IMG/VR virus record: IMGVR_UViG_3300025138_000026
Span: 1 to 64,000 of that record
Direction: 5' to 3' (one strand)
Source: a virus
DNA: 64,000 bases
A model generated the notes under the pieces. That model saw only the letters and a list, made by a program, of their open reading frames with translations. It searched no databases and had not been told where the DNA came from. The position numbers were made by a program, and so were the translations under genes. Positions 7,749-63,111 of the stretch are shown here, piece after piece. Every line of letters begins with the position of its first letter. The stretch's first letter is position 1.

Positions 7749-8288
7749 CTACAATAATTGCATAGGGGAACGATATTCTTCATAAGGAAGAACCCAATGC
7801 TCACACGAAACAAACACCTCATTCAAGGCTACCATAGTCATTAAATCACTCCTGTTTTTCCGAGAATAACCTCGATGATAGCAATCTAAAGCTGATGAAA
7901 CCAACTCATCTAAATCGCAACACTCTTCAGTAAGATTAAAAAGATCCGAATTCTTGACACATAAGAAGAATAGACCAAAATCAAAAGCAATAAATTCTGG
8001 AGACCCACTAGAGTTGCACCAGCCTGATTTGCCCTGAACATTTTTTAATTCTAAAAGAATTAATCCGTGTCTATGAGAATCTTTTATCCCCTTCACATCA
8101 AAAGTTCTCCCATCAACAACAAAATCCACATGATTTATATCGTCTTTAGAAGATGTTTTTTTAATATCTAACCCTTTAAAAGAGCAAGAGTCATAAAACC
8201 TCCTTTCTCCAGAAGCCCCCAATTTCAAAGACTTAGCTATATGGTCACCACCAGACAACCCTTTGGCTTTATTAGATATATAACTCAT
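7749..8288 (-). CDS. PD-(D/E)XK-like endonuclease (start probably MSYISNK at 8288)
   Basis: G..GE helix followed by HVDFVVDGRTFDVKG (D...DxK motif). Confidence 0.6.
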   Translation of the reverse strand: MSYISNKAKGLSGGDHIAKSLKLGASGERRFYDSCSFKGLDIKKTSSKDDINHVDFVVDGRTFDVKGIKDSHRHGLILLELKNVQGKSGWCNSSGSPEFIAFDFGLFFLCVKNSDLFNLTEECCDLDELVSSALDCYHRGYSRKNRSDLMTMVALNEVFVSCEHWVLPYEEYRSPMQLL

Positions 8289-8580
8289 CAAAAAATCTAT
8301 TCCCATTGTAAGCCTTGTCATCAATCCAAAAATCATATGATGGCTTATTCATACGAAGTTCTGTGTATTTTACACCCCATTCTTCAAGTTGATTTTTCGT
8401 AAGCTCAGACCAATCTTTACCAGAGTTCCCTCCTCTAGCGGTCCAATAAACTATTATATTCCCTTTCTTATGTAATTCGTTGAAATAAGAAATCCGACTA
8501 TGCATCGGTCTAGCTAATTCATAACGCCCTCTACTATCGGTACAAATTGTGCCGTCTATGTCTACAATGAATTTTTTCAT
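8272..8580 (-). CDS. Capless HAD-superfamily phosphatase (capsule-biosynthesis phosphatase-like)
   Basis: DIDGT motif I, WTARG motif II, KP..D.WIDD motifs III/IV. Confidence 0.85.
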   Translation of the reverse strand: MKKFIVDIDGTICTDSRGRYELARPMHSRISYFNELHKKGNIIVYWTARGGNSGKDWSELTKNQLEEWGVKYTELRMNKPSYDFWIDDKAYNGNRFFDELYI

Positions 8581-9323
8581 GACACTATTACATTTTCTTC
8601 CGAGGGAAAATGAGTTTTTAATTTTTTGATTAACTGTTCTCTTTGCGTTTTCTCTCCATGTACTTCAATATGTACCCTTTTTATATTTTTACTAAAATCT
8701 CTATTATGTTCAAATAAATAATTAAATATGCCATACTCAGAACCCTCTACATCTACTTTTAAATAAGATATATTATTGATGTTATTTAAAACGTTTTTTA
8801 TATGAGTATTTTTAAACTCACCAATTTCTTCATGACTTTCGTCATTTAAATCTGACTCAATAAAACAAGACTCTCCTTGAGAAAGATTAGAAGAAAACTT
8901 TAAAGTAACATCCTCTGATGCTGTAACAGCTGTATTGTAAAATTTTATGTTTTGAATATTATTGATAAAACAATTTAAACGCAAGGTTTCTAAAGCGCGG
9001 ACACAAGGATCAAAAGAGTGAACCGTGCAATTTGGATATAAGGCCGCGCAAACAATTGATATTAACCCATAATTGCAACCCAAATCAATAATGTTGTTGC
9101 CATCTTCAATGTTCAAATCAAAAAAATTAAATTCATATTTACAAAGACCTGCCAGAGTACCAATGAATGTTTCATCCCCCTCTGGCAACATAACATGCAA
9201 TTGTTTTTTATACCCATCTTTGCGGGAAACTTCTAACTTACTAAGAAAAAAATGCTTATTAATTTCAAATTTAAAATTAGAATTTTGTTTCTTGAGTTTA
9301 GCCCAGTCAATTATCTCTGTCAT
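8577..9323 (-). CDS. FkbM-family SAM-dependent methyltransferase
   Basis: IIDLGCNYG, SFDP, LKVDVEGSE and IEVH motifs. Confidence 0.88.
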   Translation of the reverse strand: MTEIIDWAKLKKQNSNFKFEINKHFFLSKLEVSRKDGYKKQLHVMLPEGDETFIGTLAGLCKYEFNFFDLNIEDGNNIIDLGCNYGLISIVCAALYPNCTVHSFDPCVRALETLRLNCFINNIQNIKFYNTAVTASEDVTLKFSSNLSQGESCFIESDLNDESHEEIGEFKNTHIKNVLNNINNISYLKVDVEGSEYGIFNYLFEHNRDFSKNIKRVHIEVHGEKTQREQLIKKLKTHFPSEENVIVS

Positions 9324-9822
9324 TTGTCAAGTTTATTTTTTTTATTATATCTGTTGAGCTAATATTATCTACAAAGGGAATCACTTTTAAAATAGCCGAA
9401 CCCTTAGACTTCAGTTCTGACTTGTTTAAAGAGGTTTCATCATAATCACCTCCCTTACACCAAAAATCTGGCTGAAGTTCCCTTAGTTGTTTTGACACTG
9501 TTTTGGTATTAAAAATAAATACATAATCTACCGCCTCATGGCAAGCTACTGTATAAGCTCTCTGTTTAGCAGATAGAACAGGTCTACCTTCTCCCTTTAA
9601 GGATTTAACGCTAGAATCACTATTGATACCTACAACCAATTTTGAGTTTAAACTGCAGCAATTTTTCATCGCGCTCAAAAGGCTTGCGTGACCTGAATGA
9701 AATAAATCAAAACACCCATTTGTGAAAATAAAAAACTTTTTTATACCACACTTTTCTAACTCTCTTGCGAACTGCCTCTCCTTCTTGAGTTCTTCAAAGC
9801 TTAATATTTTTTTATGTCTCAT
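9307..9822 (-). CDS. rfaE2: D-glycero-beta-D-manno-heptose 1-phosphate adenylyltransferase (HldE/RfaE domain II); start revised to MRHKK
   Basis: FTNGCFDLFHSGH, VGINSDSSV..LKG..RP, KGGDY and SST; ATGA overlap with the upstream gene. Confidence 0.88.
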   Translation of the reverse strand: MRHKKILSFEELKKERQFARELEKCGIKKFFIFTNGCFDLFHSGHASLLSAMKNCCSLNSKLVVGINSDSSVKSLKGEGRPVLSAKQRAYTVACHEAVDYVFIFNTKTVSKQLRELQPDFWCKGGDYDETSLNKSELKSKGSAILKVIPFVDNISSTDIIKKINLTNDRDN

Positions 9823-10565
9823 ATCGTAGTAACCCCCTTTTTCTTGATAACTTTTTGGCAACAATCCTGAGCTAATAGAATAGAGGTTCCTATATTTTTA
9901 GTAAGAGTATAAGAAAGAGAGAACGCAGAAAGAAATGTGTCTCCAGCCCCAGATACATCTCTAATATCAGAAGGGCTTTCAATTGGGTAGTCTCGCTCAT
10001 TATACCAACACCCCTTGGAAGCTTTAGTCACAATTAAATTGTCGCACATATACTTCCATCCATTCTCCTTGTATTCTTTTTCGTTTATTTTTATAAAAGA
10101 AAATAAACGAGCCCAATCTAGATTGCATTTTTTCTTGGTATCTAGGAAAGACAACTTAGCTCTACGACCTATTTCTTTTAATTGAACACTACTGAGAAAA
10201 CCTTTATTATAATCAGAAACAACTACTGCATCATATTCTTCTATATTATCTGGGAGATTGTAACAAAAAGGGTAAGTATCTGTATCGACCCTTAGAAACA
10301 TATGGTTTGATTGCTTATCAATATAGCGAGTCTTATGGCCTTCTGTCTCGTTAGTAACTAATTCTATTTCGTTTACAATAGGAGTTCCTTTGTGGATCTC
10401 CTTATCTACAGCCAACATATTTTTATAGACGTTATGGGCCATACCAAGATTATCATCACTGTATTCTGGAACAAATACAGGGGCAGGAGCTTCTGGACAA
10501 AGTCTTTTGGACTCCCCATAACAAAAACGATCACTACAGGTTTCCCCAATGACTAGCAATCTCAT
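9819..10565 (-). CDS. rfaE1: PfkB-family heptose 7-phosphate kinase (HldE/RfaE domain I)
   Basis: RLCPEAPAPV, SDYNKGFL, KINEKE and DVSGAGDTF. Confidence 0.88.
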   Translation of the reverse strand: MRLLVIGETCSDRFCYGESKRLCPEAPAPVFVPEYSDDNLGMAHNVYKNMLAVDKEIHKGTPIVNEIELVTNETEGHKTRYIDKQSNHMFLRVDTDTYPFCYNLPDNIEEYDAVVVSDYNKGFLSSVQLKEIGRRAKLSFLDTKKKCNLDWARLFSFIKINEKEYKENGWKYMCDNLIVTKASKGCWYNERDYPIESPSDIRDVSGAGDTFLSAFSLSYTLTKNIGTSILLAQDCCQKVIKKKGVTTI

Positions 10566-10936
10566 TTTTGAGAGTCTCCTTTCTCTACTCTGTATGAATC
10601 ATATTCGTGGTGTTCAGTACTTACCTCAAAAACACTAGCATCTTCTAAAGCAGTTAATTTGTGCGGAGTACAGGGTAGTAAATGAACAACATCTCCAGAT
10701 TCTAATTTTTTTTCTAACCGTTCTGCCTTTTTTAAATCAAAATATTCTAATTTTAATACCCCTTTAGTCACACACCAAGTCTCTTCTTTCTTGATGTGAT
10801 AGTGCATTGAAAAACTCGCCCCCTTATTAAAGCGCAAAATTTTACCGCAATATCTCTCGTTATTAATAATCCAAAGCTCATCTCCCCATCCTTTAGGGTG
10901 AACTTCAAGTCTAGAAAAAACAGGCTTAACACTCAT
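10562..10936 (-). CDS. Cupin sugar isomerase (mannose-6-P isomerase type II C-terminal / lyxose isomerase-like)
   Basis: PKGWGDE, SMHYH..KEETW, GD.V.L.P...H and EVST..DSYR cupin motifs. Confidence 0.8.
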   Translation of the reverse strand: MSVKPVFSRLEVHPKGWGDELWIINNERYCGKILRFNKGASFSMHYHIKKEETWCVTKGVLKLEYFDLKKAERLEKKLESGDVVHLLPCTPHKLTALEDASVFEVSTEHHEYDSYRVEKGDSQK

Positions 10937-15978: not shown

Positions 15979-16224
15979 TTAAGAAAAAGTGGAACCATCG
16001 CCCGTATACCTCAAGCCAGCATCATAAGGAGCTATATAAAGAGATTCTGGTTGGCCCAAATCTCTTATTTTTTTGTTGAATTCCCTACAGACATGTGCGT
16101 CTAAATCACTGCTAGAATAATCATTGTAAAGACCTGTTACTTCAACCCTATAACCAGTCCATGTTCCAGAAGTAATTGAGAAATTAGAGTGTATGTCTCC
16201 TTTTGTGTTATTTGGATCAGGCAT
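15979..16224 (-). CDS. Small TG-rich hypothetical protein (possible virion component)
   Basis: 81 aa with 3 TG and 1 SG; GTGTA motif at 16256-16260. Confidence 0.6.
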   Translation of the reverse strand: MPDPNNTKGDIHSNFSITSGTWTGYRVEVTGLYNDYSSSDLDAHVCREFNKKIRDLGQPESLYIAPYDAGLRYTGDGSTFS

Positions 16225-16540: not shown

Positions 16541-16631
16541 GGTTATTTGTTAATTCAAAGAAGAATAGTTTATTCTTTAAAGTTAAATATAACTCTACTG
16601 ACTTTAATACTGATTTAACTAGAGAGAGCAT
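16365..16631 (-). CDS. Putative i-spanin (coiled-coil protein overlapping the lipoprotein gene)
   Basis: Rz/Rz1-like overlapped arrangement; helical charged body; weak N-terminal hydrophobic segment. Confidence 0.45.
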   Translation of the reverse strand: MLSLVKSVLKSVELYLTLKNKLFFFELTNNHEKKRKKIIQEIEDIRSNDGDADRADLLREQLISEDKSFKHLSTFYSKSSERDSSSDK

Positions 16632-17457
16632 TTAAATTTTCTTCTACATAATCCTTTACACTCTTCCATTTATAATCACCAATAACTTTCAACAACTTAG
16701 AGTTATTTGCTTTAGTAAATCTCTGATATTGTCCCACAAGCTGTTTCGGCATAGGTATTTCCTTGATTTCACATGTCATGTTTGATTGTATTATCTCAGC
16801 GACATCAGTAAACGAAATAGGATTGCCAGTTCCAACATTAAATATACCCGATTCATCTTTAAGAAGCATTTCGTAATGAATCTCACAAATATCATCGACA
16901 CAAACAAAATCCCTTTTTATCCTGTCGCTTTTTTCAAATAAACTTATCTCTCCGTCTTTGTAAGCTTGCTTAATAAACTTGGACACAGGACTCGCCTGAT
17001 CTCCCTTCTTATTTTCTCCTAAGCCATAAACATTAAAATACCTAAAACCTTGGTATGGATAATCTTGATTCAATAACCAGCAATCAAACATATATTTACT
17101 AAAGGCATACGGACTTATAGGTTTACAGAAGTCATCTTCATTAAAATTCCTTCCCACTCCATAAACAGAGGCGCTGCTTGCATACTGGAACTTAATATCT
17201 ACGCTCGCACATAGCTCAAATAGTTTTTTGGAAAATTCAAAATTCTGCTTGAGAATTTTCTTTAAATTTCTCTCTGTTGTGCTGGAATTTGCCCCAAGGT
17301 GAATAACAATATCTTGGTCAAGGACATTTGGCAACCCAACATCCCCAAGGTGAATATCAAATTTTGTTACATTATATCCCCTGTGAGATAAATAGGCGGC
17401 TAAATTGCCGCCTATGAATCCACCTGCGCCAGTAATTAATACTCTATTCGCTTTCAC
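16615..17457 (-). CDS. hldD: ADP-L-glycero-D-manno-heptose 6-epimerase (start probably GTG at 17457)
   Basis: ITGAGGFIG, HLGANSSTTE, YASSASVYG, YAFSK, RYFNVYG..E..KG and RDFVCVDD. Confidence 0.88.
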   Translation of the reverse strand: MKANRVLITGAGGFIGGNLAAYLSHRGYNVTKFDIHLGDVGLPNVLDQDIVIHLGANSSTTERNLKKILKQNFEFSKKLFELCASVDIKFQYASSASVYGVGRNFNEDDFCKPISPYAFSKYMFDCWLLNQDYPYQGFRYFNVYGLGENKKGDQASPVSKFIKQAYKDGEISLFEKSDRIKRDFVCVDDICEIHYEMLLKDESGIFNVGTGNPISFTDVAEIIQSNMTCEIKEIPMPKQLVGQYQRFTKANNSKLLKVIGDYKWKSVKDYVEENLNALSS

Positions 17458-17890
17458 AATTACATCTACATCCACTATCAGAATTACATTCTTCAATAAG
17501 ATTCTTGATCAGTTGCTCGCTAAAATCAGATTCTTTAATCTTAGCTAGTTCTTTATTAAGACTCTCATCTCCAGTATCGTCTTCTAGATCAGATTTACAA
17601 AAGAAATCAAAGTTATCATGCAGAGTATAATGCTGAATAACCTCTACAACTAACTCATTATTTTTAAATGACTTACTTAAAGAATAAGAAGAATACCTAT
17701 TTACAGCGTTTTTCTTATTTTCAGTTTCAATTTCAGAATTAGTCAACTCTACTTTTCCTCCCTGACTTTTATATTTTTTTAAAACCCAGATTTTTTTAGC
17801 ATATTCCGTACCCTGTTGAAACTTGATATCAGCGTCAAAAGATAAACTGCGATATAACTCATCATCTAAAAACTCAACTATATAAGGCAT
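17444..17890 (-). CDS. Hypothetical protein
   Basis: 148 aa ORF; GTGTA motif 11 nt upstream (17902-17906). Confidence 0.7.
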   Translation of the reverse strand: MPYIVEFLDDELYRSLSFDADIKFQQGTEYAKKIWVLKKYKSQGGKVELTNSEIETENKKNAVNRYSSYSLSKSFKNNELVVEVIQHYTLHDNFDFFCKSDLEDDTGDESLNKELAKIKESDFSEQLIKNLIEECNSDSGCRCNCESE

Positions 17891-23407: not shown

Positions 23408-24021
23408 TATAAATTCATATGTTTCTTTAATTTTAAGAAAATTTCATAACACTTCTTGATATCATACATGGCATTATGAAGCTTTTCCTCCTCAAACTCT
23501 ATACCGAAAAATTTCAATAGCTGATTTTGTGAGACCTTAGCCTTAAGGCTTCGGTCATTAATAATCTTGTATTGCCAACTCAACATGTCACTCTTCGGCT
23601 TATCTAACTCTTCTCTATATGCTTTACCTAAAGCTCTTGTATCATAGATTCTAGGTAAATAAGAGTAATCAGGCTCTTGACTTAACATCCTCTGTAAGAG
23701 AGCCACCATATAAACATCAAAGCCAAGTAAGTTTTGTCCAACCACAATATATTGGGGGTCAAATAAGTAGCTTTCAAATTTAGACCAAACCTCTGAAAGC
23801 GATCTGGATTTTTTATTATAATGATCCCAGTTGAACCCCGTCATTTCTTTTACAACCTTCGGGATGTTAAGCTCTTTATGAGAGATGAATTCATCATGCT
23901 CTTCTAAAACTTTGTTGCCTTGGCAAATTATCCAAGACAGCTGCCAAGGTTTAGAGGAATGTAAATTTAAACCTTCGGTTTCTGTATCAAAGACTAGATA
24001 TTTTTGGTTACTTGGCAACAT
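23407..24021 (-). CDS. DEDDh 3'-5' exonuclease (DnaQ/epsilon-like)
   Basis: FDTETEG, QNLLGFD and HNAMYD. Confidence 0.88.
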   Translation of the reverse strand: MLPSNQKYLVFDTETEGLNLHSSKPWQLSWIICQGNKVLEEHDEFISHKELNIPKVVKEMTGFNWDHYNKKSRSLSEVWSKFESYLFDPQYIVVGQNLLGFDVYMVALLQRMLSQEPDYSYLPRIYDTRALGKAYREELDKPKSDMLSWQYKIINDRSLKAKVSQNQLLKFFGIEFEEEKLHNAMYDIKKCYEIFLKLKKHMNL

Positions 24022-33661: not shown

Positions 33662-33662
33662 T

Positions 33663-35215: not shown

Positions 35216-35217
35216 TA

Positions 35218-41584: not shown

Positions 41585-41616
41585 ATCCTTGGCATGAGTT
41601 GTGTTATATAGTAAAT

Positions 41617-50679: not shown

Positions 50680-52064
50680 ATCCTATCTCCTAAATAATAA
50701 ATGTAATCTTTCTTCAAGTATTCTCCACTTACGTCCATTCTAATTCCTGAATCATTAGACTTGGGGGTATCTATTACAGTCTCATACATAGGCTCTTGAA
50801 TAACTCCACTTATTTTATCCAAAAACCCTGTTTGTATTCTAGACCCAAATAACTGAACAGAAACAGTAGCGGCTCCAGATATACCCCTTTGTTCTATATA
50901 CTCTGCTACTGCTCCCTCGACATCTTGTAATCCCAAGGTATCAAATGCAGAAGTGTCTCCAGTCGGCAAGTATTGATAACCAGAATCTGGATGTAGAAAC
51001 CCGACCTCTTCTTTTACAAACCCAGTTACTTGGTTTACATCAAAAGATCTATAAATAAAATATCTATCACCCTCTCCCGTGTTAGTATTTGAATCAAAAG
51101 AGAAGTTTCCTGTAAGCATCCCTCTTCCCGTAGACAGGTTAAGACTTCCAGTATTCTCATAGTCGTACCCAGTTATACCCGTTTCATAAACTGTGGTTTG
51201 ATGATATCCTGTAATTCTAGTCTCCGTTGTAGCTGATTCAGAAGAGGTGAAGTAATTTCCTATCATTCCACTACCCAGACCAAATATAGTATTAGGAGAA
51301 ATATAACCCGACAGTAAAGCGAAGGAATTTAGGCTTACATTAGAAGTCTTAAATTCTCCGTTTGTCCCTCTAAAATATTGATTAGAACCCCCGATGTAAA
51401 AATCTTCATTATTAGCGATAAAAGATGTGTCAACATTGAAATCATCCTTATCAATTTGTTGATTGAAGAAATCATATTTGCACATGGTGACTTGATTAAA
51501 TCCAAGGGAAAAACTAATTATGTTTCTTTTAGATAATTCTAAATCACTAGAAGTATATATGAAATCCCCGTCTTTGCCAAACCCTTGGTAAAAAAGCTTC
51601 CCCCTATCTGTTATGCCGAAATTAAATCCTTTTGCTCCTGTTATAACTTGATCATTGATAGTTGTTGAACTCTTCTCAAGAGAACCAAATAATACGCAAT
51701 CATTCACTTCTCCATTAAATTCAAAGTCCATGATAACAGAGCAGTTAGAATAAGGCAGTGTCTCAGTACCTGTAATTTGCAAGTTTGATTCAGACAAGTC
51801 GGCTTTATCATTAATTAAAAATGTTCCTGTAGTTAGCTGTTTAGCCCCTGCATTTGTGGTAGAACCTAACCCAACTACAATTCCGCTATATATTCCTGTA
51901 TCATTTGCTGGCTCGCAATTTTCTATAACAGAATATTTGGTTCCTGCTCTATTATCAATTCCAATATGCCTACCACTAAGCCCAGAAAAATCATAAAAGA
52001 CAAGTAAGTCATTATTATTTCCTAATGATTCTGTTAAAGAGTAATTTAAACCTTTTTCGCTCAT
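50676..52064 (-). CDS. TG/SG-rich tail protein with LamG/concanavalin-like N-terminal domain
   Basis: LLVFYDF, FYIGG, beta-sandwich-like pattern. Confidence 0.6.
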   Translation of the reverse strand: MSEKGLNYSLTESLGNNNDLLVFYDFSGLSGRHIGIDNRAGTKYSVIENCEPANDTGIYSGIVVGLGSTTNAGAKQLTTGTFLINDKADLSESNLQITGTETLPYSNCSVIMDFEFNGEVNDCVLFGSLEKSSTTINDQVITGAKGFNFGITDRGKLFYQGFGKDGDFIYTSSDLELSKRNIISFSLGFNQVTMCKYDFFNQQIDKDDFNVDTSFIANNEDFYIGGSNQYFRGTNGEFKTSNVSLNSFALLSGYISPNTIFGLGSGMIGNYFTSSESATTETRITGYHQTTVYETGITGYDYENTGSLNLSTGRGMLTGNFSFDSNTNTGEGDRYFIYRSFDVNQVTGFVKEEVGFLHPDSGYQYLPTGDTSAFDTLGLQDVEGAVAEYIEQRGISGAATVSVQLFGSRIQTGFLDKISGVIQEPMYETVIDTPKSNDSGIRMDVSGEYLKKDYIYYLGDRI

Positions 52065-52065: not shown

Positions 52066-53670
52066 TTAATAGTATCTACTTACATTATAAGAAATAGAAT
52101 TGTCATTTAAACTACTTGACTCAGAAAATATATATACTCCTGTCATATATCCACTCACAACATCCTTTAGTTCTTGCAACTGTCCTGTGGAGGCTTCACA
52201 AACAGCAGACGCAGAAAACTCTCCTGCACTACGGTTATTTATTTTTTGTTTTGCAAACCCCCCTAAACTTGGAACTATTCCACTTCGCTCCAATGGTTGT
52301 TTATCAGTTAAAGTAACTTTTAAACCCGTCAGGGTTCCATTAGAAAGATCTGGCCTATTATCAAATTCTAATGAGTAATTAATTATACTATCAGATGGAT
52401 TTTTAGAAATGGACCTACTAAGCGGCTCAGGGTTAATATAGTCTCCACTTATATAGTATCCAGTTGCATACCCTGTAAAGTCTTGCAAAGCCTCAATAGC
52501 TAAATTTAAAAACCCAGACCCAGTAGCTATCCCACTATATTGCTCATCTATTTCAATAAACCTTTGCCCAGTAGCTGGGTCTCCAGTAGGGATAACTTCA
52601 AAAGGAGAATTATATTTAAATTCTCCCTGAATTGAAACTTTAACTTTTGAATCATCTTTGCTAGCATTCACAGAAGAATTTCTCTTATGTGAAACATTTC
52701 CGACTTGGTCTGTATTTTCAGGGTCAGAGAATACATAGGAAAAGTTAATAACATTAGTTCCTGTATCTATATCATAAGATACTGTTTTCGGACCTCTATC
52801 CATAAAGGTATAGATTCCGCTTTCATAATCAGATAGGGAAGATGCGATGGCGTTAACTGCAATTTCTTGAGCTTGAGATGCTGTAAATAGTCCTGTAGTC
52901 ACAAGACCCTCCGAGTTTCTAATGGAGTCAAAGTCCCCTTGAATACTAGCGTTAACGTTCACGCTTAAACCAGCTTCTTTCTCGTAAGATATAGAACAGT
53001 TTGATGAAAAAACTCCAGATAAGCCAGTCTTCATATACTCGCTTGAGTTATAACGATAAGTTTCTTGCAGCCCGTAGATATTCTGGCTCTTGTCTATATT
53101 CTCTGTCCTAGACATCAAATAGCCTGTCGCTCCAGTCAAAAATAGACTTAAATCACGATAACCTGTTGTTCTACCAGTGACGAAGTGTCTAGCATTTACC
53201 AATGGAGAGGTCGCATCAACTTTTAACCCTTGTGCCGAAACATTGTGGCTAGCCTCTACCACACGACCATCTTGTTCATTAAAAGACCAAGTATCGGTAG
53301 GATTATTTATTCCAAAAAATTCAGAAAAGTCTTCCGATTTATAACAGCTAAAAGATACAGAATAAGGCAAGACAGTACTCAAATCAGAATCGGAAAAAGA
53401 AATTGTCTCAGGCTTTGCTTGTGTAAAAGTCTTATTACCTGCGTCATGAGAAACAGTAAGAGTTTCAAATGTTGACATTAAACCACTAACCATTTGCATC
53501 TTCTGCAAGTGTAAACCACTTAAATTTTCTCCAGTTAAGTTGCCTACGAGTTCAACCGTATTTCTAAAGTGGTCAGCCTTGCCTCCAAGGTAAACAGGCT
53601 CAACCCCTTGTCCAACGAAAGGGAAAGGAGTTGGGAAAGTATAAGTTCCATATGTAATTTGTTCAGACAT
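52066..53670 (-). CDS. TG-rich tail/baseplate structural protein
   Basis: Position in the tail operon; beta-rich. Confidence 0.65.
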   Translation of the reverse strand: MSEQITYGTYTFPTPFPFVGQGVEPVYLGGKADHFRNTVELVGNLTGENLSGLHLQKMQMVSGLMSTFETLTVSHDAGNKTFTQAKPETISFSDSDLSTVLPYSVSFSCYKSEDFSEFFGINNPTDTWSFNEQDGRVVEASHNVSAQGLKVDATSPLVNARHFVTGRTTGYRDLSLFLTGATGYLMSRTENIDKSQNIYGLQETYRYNSSEYMKTGLSGVFSSNCSISYEKEAGLSVNVNASIQGDFDSIRNSEGLVTTGLFTASQAQEIAVNAIASSLSDYESGIYTFMDRGPKTVSYDIDTGTNVINFSYVFSDPENTDQVGNVSHKRNSSVNASKDDSKVKVSIQGEFKYNSPFEVIPTGDPATGQRFIEIDEQYSGIATGSGFLNLAIEALQDFTGYATGYYISGDYINPEPLSRSISKNPSDSIINYSLEFDNRPDLSNGTLTGLKVTLTDKQPLERSGIVPSLGGFAKQKINNRSAGEFSASAVCEASTGQLQELKDVVSGYMTGVYIFSESSSLNDNSISYNVSRYY

Positions 53671-55217
53671 TACTCTTCAATAAATAAATAAGTTAAGTTT
53701 CTAGTAGCTTTCCCGTCCCCTAGGTTTAGACTTGTTGTATCCGAGGTAATATGAATAACATCCTCATCAACCAATTCATTTAATTCCGCAGTTTTTGATT
53801 GCAAAATTTCTTTGGCTTTGAGTATTCCTGCACTTTGACTAACTGTAGCTTCAGCTGACACGCTCGCTTGTCCGACAGTTTTTAGATTACTCTGTACAAT
53901 CTGATCTGTTAAATCTTCTAAATTTAAAAATTTCTCCAATCTATTAATTTGATTTGTTTTATTTAAAGTCTTTTTAAATTTAAGTAATCCATCGTCAGAT
54001 GATTGATATGCATCATCACTAGTGAATACTACACTCTCAGTAATCTTTCCCTCGGTTTTTAAGAAGTTTGTTGACCTACTCTTTTCAAAAAATTGAAATG
54101 TAGGATGAAATAATCTACGAATTTTTAATGAATATAGAGGCTGCTCGTTTCCCCAAGAAGCCCTAGTATTTTTAAATTTATCTATATTGTTCTTTCCATC
54201 CGATACGTATTCTATAGATAATGAATAACTTATAAATCTTCCATCTTTACTCTCAGTTCCAGAATATGATATCACATTCTCTTGAGATTTTTTGGGATCT
54301 GTTGAAAAAGAAAGGGAGATAGTTGCTTTATTTCCGTCTGTAGAGACTGCTTTAGATATAGAGTGTGGGTTGCCAAATTCAACTTGTTCTTCAGCCTTCT
54401 TCGCGTCAATAATATTTGCTATAGCTGCATTGATAACATTTTCAGAATCTAATCTAAGAGAAGTAAGATCTATATTTATAGTTTTGTTTAAGTAACCTCT
54501 TTCATCAATACTCAAGTTTTGAGTCTCTTTTTTACTGACCTTATTTGCATCATCAACTATTGAAGAATTCACATTCTCCTCTAAAGAAACGCTTAGCCCA
54601 ATAAGATCATAAGTCTCACTTATCAAGCCCCGAAAATTATTGCTAATTTTAGCGTTTTCAGATATTCCATCTTCTTGATAACCAAAGTCAGGTCTATTCC
54701 CGAAATAATAATTAGTTAAAAAGGTCTTGGCATTATTGAGAAATTGATCTCCCGCATCTTGAATATATGTTAAGGATATCTTTCTACTTGAGCTGTAATC
54801 AGAGCCATTTCTAGAGAAATCATAAGACTCAGAAAAACTAGATATTGCATGAGGGTTTGGAATGTATTTTGCAAACTCAGAAGAAGAATAATCATCTAAT
54901 CTTCTATACTCTTCTATTGTAACAGATACAACTTCAGATCCTACTAGAGTCCCAGCATCAAAACTATATGAAGTTATTTGACCATTTATATAATCATCAG
55001 CTCCGATTCTTGCTGTAATGTTTGGCCTGTTGTAGGCGCTTTCAATAGCGTCCCTGCCTTTAACTAAAGTAGTGTCTTCTTGTTCAATATTAATATCAGA
55101 AACGTCAATCTGATAAGATCCAACAACCTTATAGCCAAATAGCTCCTCAGTGTTCAGATAAGAATATTCTATCTGAACCGAAGAAGTTAAAACATTTGTT
55201 ACTATTAAGCTAGCCAT
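53670..55217 (-). CDS. Tail/baseplate structural protein (distal-tail-like position)
   Basis: Directly downstream of the tape measure; beta-rich. Confidence 0.65.
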   Translation of the reverse strand: MASLIVTNVLTSSVQIEYSYLNTEELFGYKVVGSYQIDVSDINIEQEDTTLVKGRDAIESAYNRPNITARIGADDYINGQITSYSFDAGTLVGSEVVSVTIEEYRRLDDYSSSEFAKYIPNPHAISSFSESYDFSRNGSDYSSSRKISLTYIQDAGDQFLNNAKTFLTNYYFGNRPDFGYQEDGISENAKISNNFRGLISETYDLIGLSVSLEENVNSSIVDDANKVSKKETQNLSIDERGYLNKTINIDLTSLRLDSENVINAAIANIIDAKKAEEQVEFGNPHSISKAVSTDGNKATISLSFSTDPKKSQENVISYSGTESKDGRFISYSLSIEYVSDGKNNIDKFKNTRASWGNEQPLYSLKIRRLFHPTFQFFEKSRSTNFLKTEGKITESVVFTSDDAYQSSDDGLLKFKKTLNKTNQINRLEKFLNLEDLTDQIVQSNLKTVGQASVSAEATVSQSAGILKAKEILQSKTAELNELVDEDVIHITSDTTSLNLGDGKATRNLTYLFIEE

Positions 55218-55234: not shown

Positions 55235-58200
55235 TTACTCAAGATCTGTTTCTGTAGTAAGCTTCCCAACTTTCAACTTTAAGGAGGCTAACTCTTTAGT
55301 TAATGTAGTTATTAAGGCTTTCTGAGTTGATACAAATTCAGCGTTTGTCTCAATTAAACCACTTGTGTCAACAACTGTTTGAGTTATCTTGGCTGAAAAT
55401 TTATTTAAATTAGCTACATTTGCAGCTGCATTGTTCATTTCATCCAACAAGCTATTTATATTCTTAGCTAACCCAGCAGTATCTGCGTCCGTTTCTAATC
55501 TTTTGTAATTTTCTTTTGTTATCTCAAGTTGTCTTCTTAAATCTTCTTGAGTTTTAGTCAATTCATCTATCGCTTTTTTCTCTGACATCCCTTCTCCAGC
55601 AAGGAGATCGTCAACAACACTCTCCCCTTTGTAACCTCCTTTTCTAGCTGCTCTTTCTAGCGCCTCTCTAGACTCTTTATCCCCGAAATAAACTCTAGCT
55701 CTGGATTTAGCTCCCATAGCCCCCTCTCCAGAAAATATTTTAGAAAGTTCAGGCGCTAGTTTCTTAATTAGTTCAGAGAAGTTTTGAGTCAACCCTGCAT
55801 TCTCTCCACCCTGCTGAACAGCGGCTTGCATTTGAGCTAATTTACGGACCTCTTCTCTTGTCATTTCAAAAGTCCCTCCTCTTCTTTCTACAGCAGACTT
55901 CCTAGCTTGGATATCTTTTGTAAAAGCTCTTAGATTGGTCATAGAGTCCATTAAGAAATTCAATGATCCCCCCCCTTTATTTCCCGCTACGGCTTTTTGA
56001 ATAAAGTTTTCTGAAGCTTGAACTTCTTTTTCTTTTAGTTTTGATTTTTGCTTCTCTATATCTAATATACCTTTTTCAAGAGCTACCATTTTATTCTTAA
56101 ATGAAATAGCCGACTTATTCACAATTGAATCAAAGTTTTCTCCAGCTGAAGTTACAGCATCCTGAAGCCCCTTTAAATCTTCTTCCGAAATTCCAGATCC
56201 AAACTTATTGGCTTCATCAAATTGTTTTTGAGCTATTGCTTTTTCATTTCTGGCTGCATTAATATCCCTAAACATTAAGTTTTGTTCAGAGGCTAATCCT
56301 ACAGCGCCAGCGAAGGGACCAGAGACAGATTCAGATAACTGGGTTCTTAGTGTACCCTGAGTTTGCTCTGATTTAATTCTATCACCCACAAGAGCGCCCA
56401 TAGCTAGAGCTTCTCTAGCCTTAGCTAACTTAAAACTTGCGACTCCTATAGCATCATTTGCCTTAATTATGTTTTCTTGATTTTTTAGTTCTGCCTTTTC
56501 GGTTAAGAATCTAGTACCCGCTAGCCTCATCGCAGCTTGATTTAAATTATGTTGAACTATTTCTCTCTCTTTATCCGAAATCTCTTCTCCCCTTTTGCCC
56601 CGCTCAAGGATTTCTGTTTTGGCTGCTAAAGCTGCTGAATAAGCGTTTTCAAGACCTACAGAGGCTGCAAAACCATCTGACTGTTTAACAAATTCTAAAT
56701 TCTTTTTTACTTCTTCATTAAATGTAGATACGTCAAAATCTAAAACTCCAGATTCTCTAGCCTCTCTAGAGGAAGCCTGTTTCCTAAGCTTTACTTCTTG
56801 GTCTGCTCCTTCAGAGTCTCCTAATTTGCCGCCTAAGTATCCTCCTATTGCTCCCCCTATAATAGTCCCAACAACAGGTACTACAGAACCAATCAGTCCA
56901 CCTATCAAAGCTCCACCCGTAGAGCCAGCGGCACTTTTATATCTCTCGTCTTTTTGAGACTGTTCTAAATCTTTATCAAAGAAAGCTGAACCAGCTTGAA
57001 ATGCTCCCACCCCAATTGCTCCGACAGTTCCGAGTCTTTTAGCCGCCACACCCGCTTGAGAACCCTTCATTGCAGCTTGTGGGCCAAGTCCCATTTTTCT
57101 AAACTTGCCATAATCTCTCATTTGAGACATCTGACCCTTTCCTCCTCTTCCTAGATTGCCCAGAAAACCTGTTGAAGCAGCACCTCCTAAACCAGCTCCT
57201 CCTCCCAAAAGGAATTTCCCAGCTGCACCAGCCCCCCCTCCAGTAACGAGATTTAGGGTACTTAAAGTTATTAGTGCGTTAGCTGCTATTGAAGCACCCT
57301 CTGCTAGACTCTGCATTGCTGATTTTGCTCCTACTCTAGCCTTGCCTTCTTCTTTAATAGCTTTGATGCCAGATTTTATGTCTGCATAACTTTTTTTACT
57401 TTGTTTTAAAGATTCTATTTCCTCTGAAGTACTAGCATCTACAGCGTTTTTATTTTGTTCGTAACTTGATGTTACGCCTCCCAAGATACCTTGTAGTGAG
57501 AAAAGACCAATCATTAATGCACCAGTCGGACCAGTTTCGCCGCCTCCACCAGTATCCCCTTTAGCCCCTTTAGCCCCTTTAGTCCCTTTAGCAAACTTAG
57601 GCATATAGCCTCCAGCAAAACTTTTCTTAGAAAACTTGGGCCTCTTAACCGTAGTATATCTCCCTTGGTTAGCTAATTTTTTAGCAAAACTAGAATAACT
57701 ATTCTTTCCAGCATTCTCCTTATAATCATACAGGTTTGTCGCTTGGTTTTTAACTCCAAACATGGTGTTAACATCTTTGCGTTTCTCTCCACTAACCCCC
57801 TTAATATCAAAATCTCCCCCATCGACCTTTCGGGCTGGACTAATTCCTAATCCAACATTAACAGCAGCTTCAAATGCCGCGCCAACAACTCCTCTGAGTG
57901 CTCCTTTACCACCACCCTGTCTTTGTAGCATTTTGCTAATTTGAGATGGTTTAGGCTTACCTAGAATAGGATTTAACGATCCAGCATAGTTTGCTGCACT
58001 TGTAGTAACCCCTCTTGTTATATTCTTCCTCAGTCTTTCGTCTTGAGGGTTGGCTGCTCCATCAACAGTTTCTGGAACCTTGGGTCCATAAACACCCAAT
58101 CCCGCCCCGTATTCAAACCCCATGTTCTTACCCTTGAATTTAAATCTACCTCTAGTCCCCTTATTTATTCTAGAGGTTTTACCTATATTCGGAACAAGCA

Positions 58201-60154
58201 TAGCTGATCCAGTAGGATTAACTTGAATTACATCCTCCATTTTTTGAGTAGGCGCAACCTTCGGGGCTGCTCCGAATCTACTACTGGCAGCAGCTCCACT
58301 ATATCCAGCATCTATAGCTTGTTGCCTAGTTGTTATATCTGTCCTATTCTTGAGGGGAGATAAAAACCCTCTGTTATATTTGGGTAGATTTCCTCCAGCA
58401 TACATGGGGATAACAGCAGAATTTCCTCCTGCAAAATTAGGTATCTCTACCTCATTGTCATTCATGACAAATCTACGGCCACCAATAGTCCCCTTACCGA
58501 AATGAGCTTGCACATTATTAGGAGCGCCAAGCATTCTAGCGGTAGCCTCTTCCTCCATAAATCCAGAAGCATAACGCTTGCCCCGCCGACCCTTAAAAGT
58601 CCCAGAAGTAGCACTAAACCCAGTAACACCTTTCGCGGCAGCAGAGGTCGCAATTTGCCTCACCAACTGGGCTTGTCGCTCCAAAAGTTTGTTTTCGCTC
58701 CTTATAGCATTTAAAACTAATTGTTCTTTTTGGGCTTGAGTTATTGTCGAGCTTGTAATTGCATTTCTAAGGCTTTCATCCTTTTGCAGCAAACCGACGA
58801 TCCCCCCTTCAATATTTTTAATCCTCTCTGTCTGGGTTCCAATCGCGAACAAGGATTTTAATCCGTCTCCAGCGAACCTAGCGACTAATTTGAAAATCTT
58901 AATAAAAGCAGCTGTAAAGATGACTACAGCGGGGCCACTCAGGAAACTACCTATGGCTTTAAACAATCCTTTAATAAACGTATTGCCCTTATCTGGATCA
59001 AGAGCCTTATCCAAAAACTCTGTAAACTTATTGGCTAAACCAATTAGGTTTTGTAGAAGAGGCCCAAAAGTAATTGTCCCTATCTTTTCAGAAAGACTGG
59101 TTAAACCCTGAACAAGTACATTTATTTGAGATGATATTGATTTGCTTAACTCTGCGTTCTTTTGAAAAGCTTCATTTGTGGCTTGAGAGGCTGTTCTCGC
59201 TGCACTGGCAAATATAGAAGTATCAGAACCCAAGTCTTTTAAAGCAGCACTAACAACGTTAATTTGGAATACGCCACCTGCGAGTTCTTTGATTTGAGAA
59301 GCCACAGTTGGATCGGAGACATTCTGCAAGGCTACAGATAAAGCGTTGAGTTTTTGAATTCCTGTTTGAGTCGCATCAATTTCAACCCCCAACTCTTTAA
59401 GTTTGTCAATTGTACTTCCCCTAGATATTCTAGTGAAAATAGATTTAAATGCGTTACCAATAACCGCTCCTCCCCTAGCTGTCTTTTGTTCTACAGCTGT
59501 CACAAGCCCCAAGAGCTGATCAAAACTAACTCCAGCATCCTCCGCTGTAGATCCAGCACGACTAAATGCCTCTGCCAAATCCTGAGCAGATACAGCGAAA
59601 GCTGTGTCAACAGCAACCAATTTATTAACGATTTGATTTGCGTTTAATCCAGCAGATGCAAACCCGTTAATCGCAGCAGTGAGGGCTTTAACAGATTTCT
59701 CTGCATCTAATCCAGAGATTCTCGTTAGGACTAAAGACGCTTTTAGTCTTTTAGCGGTCTCTTCTGCGCTTAGACCTTGCCTAGCTAATTCAGCAGCACC
59801 ATCTGCAACGGTCGCAAATGATTGGCCAGTTTCTTTTGCAACCTTAAATATTGAATTCCTAAATTTATTGAATGTCGCGTCAGTAGCTTGAAAAATAGAG
59901 TTTATTTCAATTAATCGTTTTTCTACTTCAATAGTTGAAGAAACTAATTTTTTAAAAGATTGAGTTACTCCGTTTAGAACGGCGGTAGTAGCTCCAAATG
60001 CAAAGACACGAGCCGTGGAAGCATCCAGAGATTTCTGGAACTCCGAGGCTTGTCCCGTGATTCTCCCTAAAGCCTGTTGAACCTGCTTCGTAGAAGAATT
60101 CAGGCTCTGCGGGTTTAGAGAGACATTTAGGGATGCATTTAGACTGGTAGCCAT
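55235..60154 (-). CDS. Tail tape measure protein
   Basis: 1639 aa; TP901-type N-terminal region (ELARQGL, DLAEAFSRAGSTA, GGAVIGNAFKSIF), Gly/Ala hydrophobic stretches, coiled-coil C-terminus. Confidence 0.92.
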   Translation of the reverse strand: MATSLNASLNVSLNPQSLNSSTKQVQQALGRITGQASEFQKSLDASTARVFAFGATTAVLNGVTQSFKKLVSSTIEVEKRLIEINSIFQATDATFNKFRNSIFKVAKETGQSFATVADGAAELARQGLSAEETAKRLKASLVLTRISGLDAEKSVKALTAAINGFASAGLNANQIVNKLVAVDTAFAVSAQDLAEAFSRAGSTAEDAGVSFDQLLGLVTAVEQKTARGGAVIGNAFKSIFTRISRGSTIDKLKELGVEIDATQTGIQKLNALSVALQNVSDPTVASQIKELAGGVFQINVVSAALKDLGSDTSIFASAARTASQATNEAFQKNAELSKSISSQINVLVQGLTSLSEKIGTITFGPLLQNLIGLANKFTEFLDKALDPDKGNTFIKGLFKAIGSFLSGPAVVIFTAAFIKIFKLVARFAGDGLKSLFAIGTQTERIKNIEGGIVGLLQKDESLRNAITSSTITQAQKEQLVLNAIRSENKLLERQAQLVRQIATSAAAKGVTGFSATSGTFKGRRGKRYASGFMEEEATARMLGAPNNVQAHFGKGTIGGRRFVMNDNEVEIPNFAGGNSAVIPMYAGGNLPKYNRGFLSPLKNRTDITTRQQAIDAGYSGAAASSRFGAAPKVAPTQKMEDVIQVNPTGSAMLVPNIGKTSRINKGTRGRFKFKGKNMGFEYGAGLGVYGPKVPETVDGAANPQDERLRKNITRGVTTSAANYAGSLNPILGKPKPSQISKMLQRQGGGKGALRGVVGAAFEAAVNVGLGISPARKVDGGDFDIKGVSGEKRKDVNTMFGVKNQATNLYDYKENAGKNSYSSFAKKLANQGRYTTVKRPKFSKKSFAGGYMPKFAKGTKGAKGAKGDTGGGGETGPTGALMIGLFSLQGILGGVTSSYEQNKNAVDASTSEEIESLKQSKKSYADIKSGIKAIKEEGKARVGAKSAMQSLAEGASIAANALITLSTLNLVTGGGAGAAGKFLLGGGAGLGGAASTGFLGNLGRGGKGQMSQMRDYGKFRKMGLGPQAAMKGSQAGVAAKRLGTVGAIGVGAFQAGSAFFDKDLEQSQKDERYKSAAGSTGGALIGGLIGSVVPVVGTIIGGAIGGYLGGKLGDSEGADQEVKLRKQASSREARESGVLDFDVSTFNEEVKKNLEFVKQSDGFAASVGLENAYSAALAAKTEILERGKRGEEISDKEREIVQHNLNQAAMRLAGTRFLTEKAELKNQENIIKANDAIGVASFKLAKAREALAMGALVGDRIKSEQTQGTLRTQLSESVSGPFAGAVGLASEQNLMFRDINAARNEKAIAQKQFDEANKFGSGISEEDLKGLQDAVTSAGENFDSIVNKSAISFKNKMVALEKGILDIEKQKSKLKEKEVQASENFIQKAVAGNKGGGSLNFLMDSMTNLRAFTKDIQARKSAVERRGGTFEMTREEVRKLAQMQAAVQQGGENAGLTQNFSELIKKLAPELSKIFSGEGAMGAKSRARVYFGDKESREALERAARKGGYKGESVVDDLLAGEGMSEKKAIDELTKTQEDLRRQLEITKENYKRLETDADTAGLAKNINSLLDEMNNAAANVANLNKFSAKITQTVVDTSGLIETNAEFVSTQKALITTLTKELASLKLKVGKLTTETDLE

Positions 60155-60173
60155 ATAGTGTAATTTACACCTA

Positions 60174-61043: not shown

Positions 61044-61836
61044 CTAAAGCTTCTGCTTCAGGTTCAAACAGGTCTTTTAGAGCTTCATCAATTGATTTCT
61101 GATCATTGCCCATTTTATTATACCAAATACTAGCAACCCTAATAAGCTTCTCAAAACACTCGTCGTAAATCTTTTTGGCTCTTAAGAATGTAGCGTCTTC
61201 AATGTCTTCGTCTTCAGCTTCTTGTAGTCTAATCAAGAACATCCGTTTTTGCTCAAATTCGTCTCCTTCAAAAATATCAAACAAATCTTTCTTGTCATTG
61301 ATACTATCTTCAAAATAAGAGAAGTTTAACACCAGCCACTCAATAACTTTTATCTCAGCTTTTGAGTCTGCAGTTTGACTGAATTGAGACCTTAGAGAAG
61401 TTTCATATTCATGTAGTTGAACTCTAGTATGCGTGAACAGTTTTTTAGCTTCTTCTAACTGCTCTTTTTGCTCTTCAGACAAATCTTTTGCACCAGCAAA
61501 AAACTCAATTGTTCTTGAGGATTCCATATTATCAATGATAATCTGGTTCATGGCTTCTTGGGACGTTTTAGAAGTAAGCCCGCCCATGTCTCCAAGTTTC
61601 TTAGACAGCATAGCTTTAGTTAAAAATCCAGCGTTAATATATTCGTTGTATTTCTGCCCGTAGAAGAACTCGGCGTCTTCAAGGTCTAGAATAGATGGCT
61701 TCCGAAAAACAATTCTATTCTTAATGGTGTTTTTTACTTTTTTAGTAGTTTCAACTGGACCATTTTTAGTTTTTTTGACATGAGGAACCTCTTTCTCAAT
61801 GGTTCTCTTTACATCAAACGAGTATAGCTCTTTCAT
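61024..61836 (-). CDS. Putative tail assembly chaperone
   Basis: Helical acidic protein between the tube genes and the tape measure; TTGATT-16-TATAAT (61844-61871) 7 nt before the ATG. Confidence 0.55.
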   Translation of the reverse strand: MKELYSFDVKRTIEKEVPHVKKTKNGPVETTKKVKNTIKNRIVFRKPSILDLEDAEFFYGQKYNEYINAGFLTKAMLSKKLGDMGGLTSKTSQEAMNQIIIDNMESSRTIEFFAGAKDLSEEQKEQLEEAKKLFTHTRVQLHEYETSLRSQFSQTADSKAEIKVIEWLVLNFSYFEDSINDKKDLFDIFEGDEFEQKRMFLIRLQEAEDEDIEDATFLRAKKIYDECFEKLIRVASIWYNKMGNDQKSIDEALKDLFEPEAEALDEQQGE

Positions 61837-61867
61837 GTATATTATTATATAAATATACAGAAAAAAA

Positions 61868-62269
61868 TCAACTTATACAACCTGTGGCCTCTAAAGAAAG
61901 TACCGAGTCCCCATGTTTAGTGAACATAACTAGATTTGACCTTCCATTCAAAACGCTATCTCCCGTCACATCTAATCCATTAGCTATTAAAATATCATCT
62001 TTATAATAAGAAAACGTGGAGTTTAGAAAATCATGATGTATTTCAAGGTCAAAGGGGACTCCGCTTCTATAACCCCCAAAGAAATTACCACTTTGGTCAA
62101 ATATATAACCTTCCGCTCCAGAAAACGTCATTAAGTTAGCTGTTTTAAAACCTCCGTCTATACCTGTCTCCATAATGGAAAACTCAAAACCACTGATAGG
62201 AGAATCAATCGTTACATCTACATTGTAGATACAATTTTTATAATTTGGTAGGTTTCCGCTAGTAATCAT
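61868..62269 (-). CDS. SG/TG-rich small structural protein
   Basis: 133 aa, beta-rich, coupled to the tube paralog. Confidence 0.6.
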   Translation of the reverse strand: MITSGNLPNYKNCIYNVDVTIDSPISGFEFSIMETGIDGGFKTANLMTFSGAEGYIFDQSGNFFGGYRSGVPFDLEIHHDFLNSTFSYYKDDILIANGLDVTGDSVLNGRSNLVMFTKHGDSVLSLEATGCIS

Positions 62270-63111
62270 TTTATTATTGGGAAATAGTAAGAGAAACTTA
62301 CAGAAGTATTATCGTCTAGAGAAGTCGATTCCTCAACAGATTCTAAACAACAGCCACTTGTAGTAAAATCTAAAATAGATTCATTGTCTCTACCTTTTAA
62401 GTCGATAGTAATCACCCCGCTTTCGCAAACTAGACTGGAAATATTAATTCCAGTAACATCTGTCTTTAAAACATTAAAATTAAGACTCCCCTGAGCTGGC
62501 ATCTGAGGATATCTGTATTGAGGGACTCTAGTACCCAACCTAGTTACAGGAGTCTTTTGAAGAGAAACTGATATAGAAAAATCTTGTATATTTAAGCCAG
62601 TAGTATCTATTCCTTCGTCGCCGTTAGAAGATGTGTAGATCTCGATATCTTCAGGTCTAAAGAACCCGTCAAATATATCGTTAGATTCACTTGTTAAAGC
62701 TCCAGCGTTAGTAAAAATAGCTCCATCTCCCTCGTAAGAAGAAGATCCCTTAACAATATCCCCCACAGATCCATTAATAGAATAAGATGTTAAAGCTGCT
62801 CCAGAAATAGTGGTCACACCAACAGAGTCCTTTGCTTTAAATTCAAAAAAACCAGTAGATAAAAAACCTGACTTCATATTTTGGTAGCTGTAAATAGGGT
62901 CAATCCCAGTAGCTCCAGTTGTTAAATTAACGTCATAGGTTAATGTGGTAGATTGGTTGGAGGTTAATATTCTGTCTACAGAGTGGGAAGCTCCTAATCT
63001 TTGGATATCAACAACACTCTTAGGAGATGAAATAGATAGCGAGGTTACAGAAGGAATCCGCTGATCATCTACAAAAAGCTGAACATCACTAGAATGAATC
63101 CTATCTGGCAT
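62266..63111 (-). CDS. Tail tube-like protein (paralog of the major tail protein)
   Basis: IQDFSISVSLQKTPVTRLG and SLDDN mirror VQSASIEVPLSRTPIEALG and GLDDN of the upstream gene. Confidence 0.65.
   Translation of the reverse strand: MPDRIHSSDVQLFVDDQRIPSVTSLSISSPKSVVDIQRLGASHSVDRILTSNQSTTLTYDVNLTTGATGIDPIYSYQNMKSGFLSTGFFEFKAKDSVGVTTISGAALTSYSINGSVGDIVKGSSSYEGDGAIFTNAGALTSESNDIFDGFFRPEDIEIYTSSNGDEGIDTTGLNIQDFSISVSLQKTPVTRLGTRVPQYRYPQMPAQGSLNFNVLKTDVTGINISSLVCESGVITIDLKGRDNESILDFTTSGCCLESVEESTSLDDNTSVSFSYYFPIIK

Follow-up and report, generated by a model that had tools for sequence, protein, structure and literature searches.

The 64,000-nucleotide stretch analysed here (the window) comprises bases 1–64000 of IMG/VR record IMGVR_UViG_3300025138_000026, a viral record of 79,643 bp with a CheckV completeness of 57% whose source is an uncultured marine tailed phage. 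Its minus strand encodes five baseplate and tail-tip proteins in which Gly is preceded by Thr or Ser far more often than composition predicts, a dipeptide written [ST]G below. These are a 534-residue baseplate hub or Dit-like protein of tail-tube-fold modules (52066–53670), a baseplate protein of 462 residues in which a ConA/lectin-like jelly roll at the N-terminus is followed by a domain of long β-hairpins (50676–52064), a 286-residue tail-tip protein (49819–50679), a fast-evolving, fibre-like protein of 278 residues that lies between two plus-strand islands (42281–43117), and a 133-residue tail protein encoded upstream of genes in the chaperone position (61868–62269). Adjoining the rich genes is a plus-strand island of four genes (43156–47332), the middle two of which encode a GT4/GT9-like glycosyltransferase (GT) pair, and we consider below how the motif and this pair may be related.

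The significance of the excess was assessed with composition-preserving shuffles of each protein, and is expressed as the ratio of observed to expected dipeptide counts (O/E). [ST]G occurs 25 times in the hub against 9.9 ± 2.6 expected, 24 times against 10.5 in the 462-residue protein, 13 times against 5.3 in the 286-residue protein, and 16 times against 7.1 in the 278-residue protein (p ≤ 0.001 for each); the 133-residue protein has 8 against 2.7 (p = 0.0025) and not a single reverse dipeptide, G[ST]. Pooled over the five proteins, [ST]G stands at an O/E of 2.43, compared with 0.85 for G[ST]. The remaining 71 open reading frames (ORFs) give 1.00 and 1.01, respectively, and the first of these values shows no sign that [ST]G is avoided in the rest of the proteome. 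For comparison, pooled [ST]G O/E values of 1.15–1.48 are obtained with 142 ORFs from lambda, P2, Mu, SPP1, and TP901-1, and no real gene of these five phages shows a comparable excess.

The bias had been noticed by hand counting in an original prediction, which read it as the sequon of a virion O-glycosylation system. Those counts of Thr-Gly against Gly-Thr were exact (16 versus 3 in the hub, 14 versus 4 in the 462-residue protein, 9 versus 1 in the 278-residue protein, and 6 versus 1 in the 286-residue protein), as were the 7–10 Ser-Gly pairs given for each of these four proteins. Equally exact were the absence of Thr-Gly and the single Ser-Gly in the 515-residue protein encoded on the same strand directly after the tape measure (53670–55217), which serves as an [ST]G-poor internal control (1 observed versus 5.3 expected). 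Elsewhere the case for the bias is weaker. Within 61868–63111 it holds for the 133-residue protein and is weak for the product of 62266–63111, a candidate tube-region protein (9 versus 5.6, p = 0.08; 1.0–1.7 in relatives); at 15979–16224 it is nominally present (4 versus 1.6, p = 0.035) in what is a small protein; and the N-terminus of the tail fibre, also named as biased, has 8 versus 4.5 in its first 300 residues, the fibre as a whole having 52 versus 50. The proposal that exposed virion proteins in general carry the signal is not supported either, there being no excess in the capsid-region proteins (ORFs at 63175–72741 of the source record, by the same shuffles), the tape measure (23 versus 26 expected), the giant fibre, or two baseplate neighbours.

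The preference is specific for hydroxyl residues. Among the residues that precede Gly in the five proteins, only Thr (3.2-fold) and Ser (1.85-fold) are enriched, whereas Asn (0.77) and Asp (0.51) are depleted, and the same pattern is found in the two large families, those of the hub and the 462-residue protein. Altogether 48% of all Gly residues in the five proteins follow Ser or Thr, compared with 12–16% elsewhere. The flanks of the motif are hydrophobic at 58–60% of positions, against a background of 37%, and are so in the rich proteins only. The five proteins thus share a conserved linear motif, hydrophobic-[Thr/Ser]-Gly-hydrophobic, at approximately 2.4 times its expected density. Codons at the motif sites are mixed, which places selection at the level of the protein and rules out a cause at the level of DNA. 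HHalign comparisons among the five families detect no homology (probability ≤1.3%), so that the bias is convergent and shared ancestry of the rich proteins is ruled out. Avoidance of deamidation, by which Asn-Gly and Asp-Gly would be replaced, is ruled out as a general rule, these pairs standing at 0.86–0.87 in other virion proteins and Asp-Gly being abundant in the 515-residue neighbour.

The bias is inherited. All five rich families retain an [ST]G O/E of 2.1–2.9 in 28–43 IMG/VR relatives, the family of the 133-residue protein having a mean of 2.9, and homologues of poor proteins stay poor, with mean O/E values of 0.47 for 53670–55217 and 0.89 for 47327–49822, so that the protein-selectivity claimed originally is real. 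In the families of the hub and the 462-residue protein (110–112 homologues each, 110 for the hub), most motif sites are conserved; in the latter, motif Ser/Thr residues are identical in 82% of cases, compared with 44% for other Ser/Thr residues, and are as conserved as the Gly itself. Site turnover at constant density, considered as a pattern of evolution, is only weak, most sites being positionally conserved. The wider hub family, with 587 representatives at 50% clustering, is patchy, and its [ST]G O/E ranges from 0.12 to 2.8. In motif-poor hubs, Ser/Thr and Gly have been exchanged together for ordinary pairs such as Leu-Ala, Glu-Gln, and Ile-Glu, a joint loss which indicates that the hub fold does not need Gly at these positions. 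In two such phages, L052 (complete) and L053, the hub is motif-poor, yet the 462- and 286-residue homologues are rich and the transferase genes are present. Scans with single proteins for distant rich or poor members returned nothing, or a 2-kb contig only. Two further observations concern the neighbours themselves. The 515-residue protein is the opposite of the proteins around it, with an [ST]G O/E of approximately 0.2–0.5 across 44 relatives and an enrichment in Asp-Gly (6 versus 1.9), and in some relatives (P0132, P0181, P0185; L023) the 462- and 286-residue proteins are fused into one protein of 752–771 residues.

Structural models place the motif in more than one setting. The AlphaFold model of the hub (predicted local distance difference test score, pLDDT, of 75) consists of repeated strand-strand-helix-strand modules, for which Foldseek finds weak similarity to chains of tail tubes, terminators, Dit proteins, and baseplates. 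Its motif Gly residues lie mostly at the C-terminal ends of helices and at the starts of strands, 68% of them no more than one residue from a secondary-structure boundary. In the model of the 462-residue protein (pLDDT of 82), half of the motif Gly residues lie inside strands; its C-terminal domain is modelled as very long hairpins at low confidence and is probably oligomeric. Because helix ends and strand starts in the one protein are replaced by strand interiors in the other, the motif is not tied to a single structural setting. The N-terminal domain of the 462-residue protein (residues 1–270) finds its best Foldseek matches among the receptor-binding domains of clostridial neurotoxins, at 10–14% identity and a template-modelling score of 0.3. 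We do not adopt a toxin reading, the matches reflecting only the common lectin-like jelly-roll fold, and as modelled this jelly roll is probably a carbohydrate-binding module of the baseplate.

The plus-strand island begins with a gene for a 197-residue protein (43156–43749) whose invariant acidic C-terminus ends in D-V-P-F, like the tails of bacterial single-stranded DNA-binding proteins (SSBs). It has no sequence match in Pfam, PHROG, or the PDB, and judged by this tail it is probably a novel SSB, a Whirly-like relation being a lead only. The second gene (43730–45445) encodes a 571-residue transferase in which a GT4-like GT-B domain is followed by a GT9-like N-lobe at the C-terminus (approximately residues 461–571). 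This protein matches phrog_2170 (3.5e-20) and, weakly, the Pfam GT1 and Zn-ribbon families; its C-terminus aligns weakly (E = 0.09) to residues 9–67 of the GT9 structure 3tov. A Cys4 ribbon in the GT4-like domain (C273, C276, C291, and C294) is invariant in 36 homologues, and more than 3,000 homologues of the family are known from metagenomes. The start of the third gene (45442–46572) overlaps the end of the second. Its 376-residue product contains a GT9 C-lobe, the donor-binding half (approximately residues 17–145), and an extra domain of about 200 residues. It matches PF01075 with 36.9 bits (cut-off 22), at model positions 170–228 only, and has the GT9 donor-binding motif G-x-D-S/T-x-x-x-H, of which G104, D106, S107, and H111 are invariant. 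One GT9 fold is spread in this way over two overlapping genes at 43730–46572, with its N-lobe on the 571-residue protein and its C-lobe opening the 376-residue protein. The last gene of the island (46550–47332) encodes a highly conserved protein of 260 residues for which a PDB profile search gave no match and a Rad52/Sak-like relation is a weak lead only.

A profile of the 376-residue family searched against all PDB sequences (E ≤ 1) retrieves WaaF (1psw, E = 0.006) and WaaC (2gt1, 2h1f, 6dfe), and no TibC entry appears in that search at that threshold. The kinship with the heptosyltransferases AAH and TibC that had been put forward is therefore not borne out, the more so as the Cys4 insert sits in the GT4-like and not in the GT9-like domain. 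The four-gene island occupies the same place in every relative with a long enough flank, including the distant L052–L054. The GT pair adjoins the rich genes in all relatives whose flank reaches that far, approximately 40 of some 50 loci, and its conservation, at 56–91%, exceeds that of the tail proteins.

The reading that we favour, tentatively and with less than even confidence, is that the [ST]G motif may be an acceptor tag for phage-encoded O-glycosylation. A trans-acting enzyme would recognise the motif, requiring the hydroxyl group together with the following Gly for access, and the likeliest enzyme would be the conserved two-chain GT4/GT9 glycosyltransferase of the island; sugar transferases are the only conserved candidate enzymes near the rich tail genes. 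The baseplate proteins would be O-glycosylated in the cytoplasm, before or during baseplate assembly, with the GT9 half, whose N-lobe lies on one chain and C-lobe on the next, taking a nucleotide-heptose-type donor and the GT4 half adding, or extending the glycan with, a second sugar. The ADP-heptose and GDP-deoxysugar genes of the phage, which lie outside the conserved core, might only boost or vary the donor supply in some lineages. Stability, shielding, or interplay with receptors are candidate roles of the glycan. Recognition of the dipeptide as such by a reader is favoured by the specificity for a hydroxyl group, the convergence of the five families, the variety of the structural settings, and the disappearance of both residues together. 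The size of the excess, the mixed codons, the conservation of the motif sites, and the synteny of the GT pair with the rich genes also count in favour of the acceptor tag. As for the interpretation offered originally, the bias is real, protein-selective, conserved, and hydroxyl-specific, and a conserved GT pair does lie adjacent in every relative that could be checked; heptose priming, TibC kinship, and a general decoration of the virion are not supported.

Several observations weigh against the acceptor-tag reading. The signal is missing from the capsid-region ORFs and from the large fibre, and the glycosylation itself is a prediction from sequence. Motif and GT pair occur together in all relatives sampled and none without the pair was found, so that their co-occurrence provides no contrast. 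In some clades the hub has lost 24 of its 25 sites while the GT pair is retained. The pair is encoded on the strand opposite to the tail genes, co-oriented behind the SSB-like gene; with an SSB-like first gene and weak Rad52/Sak-like leads for the last, the island cannot simply be counted with the tail operon. GT4 and GT9 are the classic families of lipopolysaccharide (LPS) core synthesis, and it is the LPS heptosyltransferases, not TibC, that the GT9 part resembles. Finally, the choice of Ser or Thr is fixed site by site, the flanks are hydrophobic, and at an overall identity of 24–30% most sites still fall in unchanged columns with little turnover, all of which also fits a structural role.

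Such a role is the basis of the explanation that ranks next and that we regard as possible, again at less than even confidence. The motif would be purely a hinge, cap, or bulge of co-assembling baseplate proteins, found at helix C-caps, at strand starts, and at kinks in long intertwined β-strands, and the GTs would have another target, most plausibly glycans of the host envelope such as the LPS core, where their action would mask receptors against superinfection or against the loss of progeny on debris. The proximity of hub sites to secondary-structure boundaries favours this explanation, several of them fitting a Schellman-type helix C-cap in which Gly is followed by a hydrophobic residue, as does the half of the motif Gly residues that lies in the very long strands of the low-confidence, probably oligomeric domain of the 462-residue protein. 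X-Gly-hydrophobic turns are common in fibrous viral shafts, and the hydrophobic flanks, the fixed choice of Ser or Thr, and the positional stability of the sites are equally expected of structural elements. Its second half is consistent with the WaaF/WaaC matches of the GT9 lobe and with a gene content of multiple GTs, deoxysugar enzymes, and a methylase that resembles envelope-glycan synthesis. However, the usual turn pairs, Asn-Gly and Asp-Gly, are depleted rather than enriched; five families lacking detectable homology to one another converge on the motif, unlike the other β-rich virion proteins of this phage; sites are placed differently from protein to protein; no gene with a comparable excess was found in the five reference phages; and the poor hubs replace Ser/Thr and Gly jointly, which argues that Gly is not conformationally required.

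The evidence for a trans-acting reader would serve as well for a tag recognised by some other hydroxyl-directed modification or partner unrelated to the GTs, such as phosphorylation, acylation, or recognition of the dipeptide by an assembly factor, and the physical link between the GT island and tail-gene expression is weak. We consider this improbable, as neither the window nor the conserved neighbourhood of the tail genes showed a kinase, an acyltransferase, or any other candidate enzyme. It is also decidedly unlikely that the GT pair modifies phage DNA with sugars in the manner of T-even phages, the protein motif being unrelated to it. A role in DNA is not known for GT9 enzymes or ADP-heptose, and the usual prerequisite, a base hydroxylase or hydroxymethylase of the ThyA family, was not found: PF00303 has no match in the source record or in four relatives, including a complete genome of 147 kb, and of the same records only one relative has a ThyX (PF02511), an ordinary one. 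A search for TET/JBP (PF12851) also gave no match but is uninformative, its control having been silent too. What speaks for DNA as the target is the position of the pair, in an island headed by an SSB-like gene and closed by one with a weak Rad52/Sak-like lead, together with the finding that core glycosyltransferases of lytic phages are often DNA-modifying (PMC13326640). The notion that composition, a DNA motif, or common descent produced the bias as a side effect can draw on the Ser/Thr/Gly-richness of the proteins and on the mild preference for [ST]G over G[ST] in the reference phages, and is rejected as highly improbable in view of the shuffles, the mixed codons, the lack of profile similarity between families, and the depletion in equally Ser/Thr-rich neighbours.

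Among known systems, the acceptor-tag reading most invites comparison with the BAHT heptosyltransferases (TibC/TibA, Aah/AIDA-I), which provide a precedent for it and with which the phage locus would share a cytoplasmic GT9-type enzyme encoded beside its candidate substrates, here on the opposite strand in the island headed by the SSB-like gene, multiple O-modification of Ser/Thr at loop starts in β-rich proteins, and a GT-B enzyme that carries an inserted Cys4 metal knuckle (PMC4358343, PMC3835316). BAHT enzymes further feature an N-terminal β-barrel, a β-hairpin thumb, and a dodecameric ring. Aah and TibC heptosylate Ser/Thr where the loop begins in strand-loop-strand motifs (PMC3835316, PMC4358343); some of the phage sites fit this placement, such as T303 in the hub, and many lie at helix ends or inside long strands. 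Unlike the BAHT enzymes, the phage GT9 fold is divided between two genes and joined to a GT4 domain, and the Cys4 ribbon sits in the GT4 part, whereas TibC carries its four-Cys iron finger in the heptosyltransferase C-lobe (PMC4358343). The substrates of BAHT enzymes are secreted β-helix adhesins and the phage candidates are baseplate proteins; Aah acts without a sequence consensus, whereas the phage proteins have a conserved dipeptide.

Mycobacteriophage virions (Che8, Corndog, Myrna) are glycosylated by phage GTs, as summarised in a citing paper (Freeman et al. 2023, cited in PMC11256854). They form a second precedent, the likeness being that phage GTs are proposed to decorate the structural proteins of the phage itself. 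In those phages the glycans are reportedly proven chemically, on capsid and tail-tube proteins; here the signal is instead a dipeptide in folded baseplate proteins, the capsid region lacks it, and, as in the comparison with BAHT, the activity of the phage enzymes is a prediction. The LPS-core enzymes WaaC and WaaF (GT9) and WaaG (GT4) resemble the pair in that the GT9 C-lobe matches WaaC and WaaF best, the two CAZy families are identical, and ADP-heptose genes are present in the genome. In contrast to them, the phage pair is split and fused, carries the Cys4 ribbon and the extra domain of 200 residues, and is a phage core gene set beside tail genes; WaaC and WaaF hold both GT9 lobes on a single polypeptide, whereas the phage lobes lie on two proteins. 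[Ser/Thr]-Gly acceptors occur in eukaryotes, where the proteoglycan xylosyltransferase uses Ser-Gly and EOGT modifies EGF domains, the substrates being folded or compact. The analogy extends to the logic only, the enzymes, compartments, and organisms being unrelated. As in DNA glycosylation of the T-even/RB69 type, core GT-B transferases are found among DNA-metabolism genes (PMC13326640), but the ThyA-family enzyme required there was found (PF00303 search) neither in the source record nor in the complete relative.

A wider version of the acceptor-tag reading, in which widespread marine phages would practise a sequon-directed, cytoplasmic O-glycosylation of the baseplate that acts on at least five protein families and whose tag is gained and lost protein by protein, appears doubtful to us. 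Should the motif be a glycosylation signal, it would be the first acceptor motif of phage virion glycosylation to be defined by sequence, and it would occur in uncultured ocean phages that are abundant as judged from the metagenomic homologues of the transferase. This would bear on the survival of phage particles, their adsorption, and their evasion of recognition; a soluble two-chain protein O-glycosyltransferase with a short tag would also be of interest for glycoengineering. If the motif is purely structural, it represents an unusual convergent design rule, half of the Gly residues following Thr or Ser, that structure predictors and annotators could use.

The window was originally credited with about nine glycosyltransferases, of which about five are supported: the two of the island, a GT4-like transferase of 361 residues (40499–41584, plus strand; phrog_2170, 1.4e-18, the PHROG family also of the N-terminal part of the 571-residue protein, and a weak Pfam GT1 match), and, weakly, the products of 32726–33661 and 33663–34436. 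A deoxysugar/glycan cluster on the minus strand (30537–36791) holds the genes for Gmd and a DegT-family enzyme, two genes with weak GT similarity, and three without an assignment; what had been called ColD is only the DegT-family enzyme, with best matches that are PseC/RfbH-like. Colitose capping and methylation of the glycans, part of the same proposal, are speculation.

An ADP-heptose operon on the minus strand (8272–10936) encodes a HAD phosphatase, whose match is weak, an FkbM methyltransferase, an HldE-type adenylyltransferase, an HldE-type kinase, and a cupin, and an HldD-like ADP-glyceromanno-heptose 6-epimerase is encoded separately on the same strand (16615–17496; TIGR02197, 221 bits, cut-off 274.6). 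The assignments of FkbM, a split HldE, an HldD-like epimerase, and Gmd are upheld, at scores below the NCBIfam equivalog cut-offs; for the HldE-type kinase (91.6 bits) and adenylyltransferase (132 bits), HldE is the best match, again under those cut-offs. In this operon the cupin and the short HAD phosphatase stand where GmhA and GmhB are expected, and the scanned window proteins include no SIS-type GmhA. Two relatives encode HldD and the adenylyltransferase; the complete 147-kb relative, which keeps the motif and the GT pair, lacks both. HldE/HldD are accordingly accessory, and neither heptose priming nor the phage's "own sugar pathways" is supported as part of the system.

The relative that is rated complete is a record of 146,905 bp with direct terminal repeats. 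Among the 50,697 deposited phage genomes of INPHARED, no near relative was found by DNA or by the hub protein, and the terminase is at best approximately 25% identical to those of known phages. The head genes are located past the end of the window; head proteins have no match in PHROGs, and neither do the tail proteins except the fibre, which exceeds 1,897 residues, and the tape measure of 1639 residues (55235–60154, minus strand; PHROG tape-measure families, E down to 5e-41). The gene set also holds a DnaE-type replication module, RecA, a ribonucleotide reductase, and a ClpB-like ATPase.

Several of these other genes have features of their own. The DnaE-type polymerase is seemingly in pieces on three consecutive genes, a core (20846–23407), an RNase T-like exonuclease (23407–24021), and a PHP-domain protein (24008–24706). 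The ATPase is a phage-encoded two-ring ClpB/Hsp104-like AAA+ protein of 774 residues (18529–20853), and a small HSP20 chaperone gene lies at 41599–41904. A protein of 550 residues (6170–7822) is composed of several small modules, each matching another short family (phrog_16028, 7595, 28338; DUF5824). Finally, a 30-kb contig with a 45%-identical hub gene (L057, CAKZOO010000042.1) is binned in a metagenome-assembled genome of an uncultured member of the Flavobacteriaceae, and this binning gives a weak hint at the Flavobacteriaceae as the host group.

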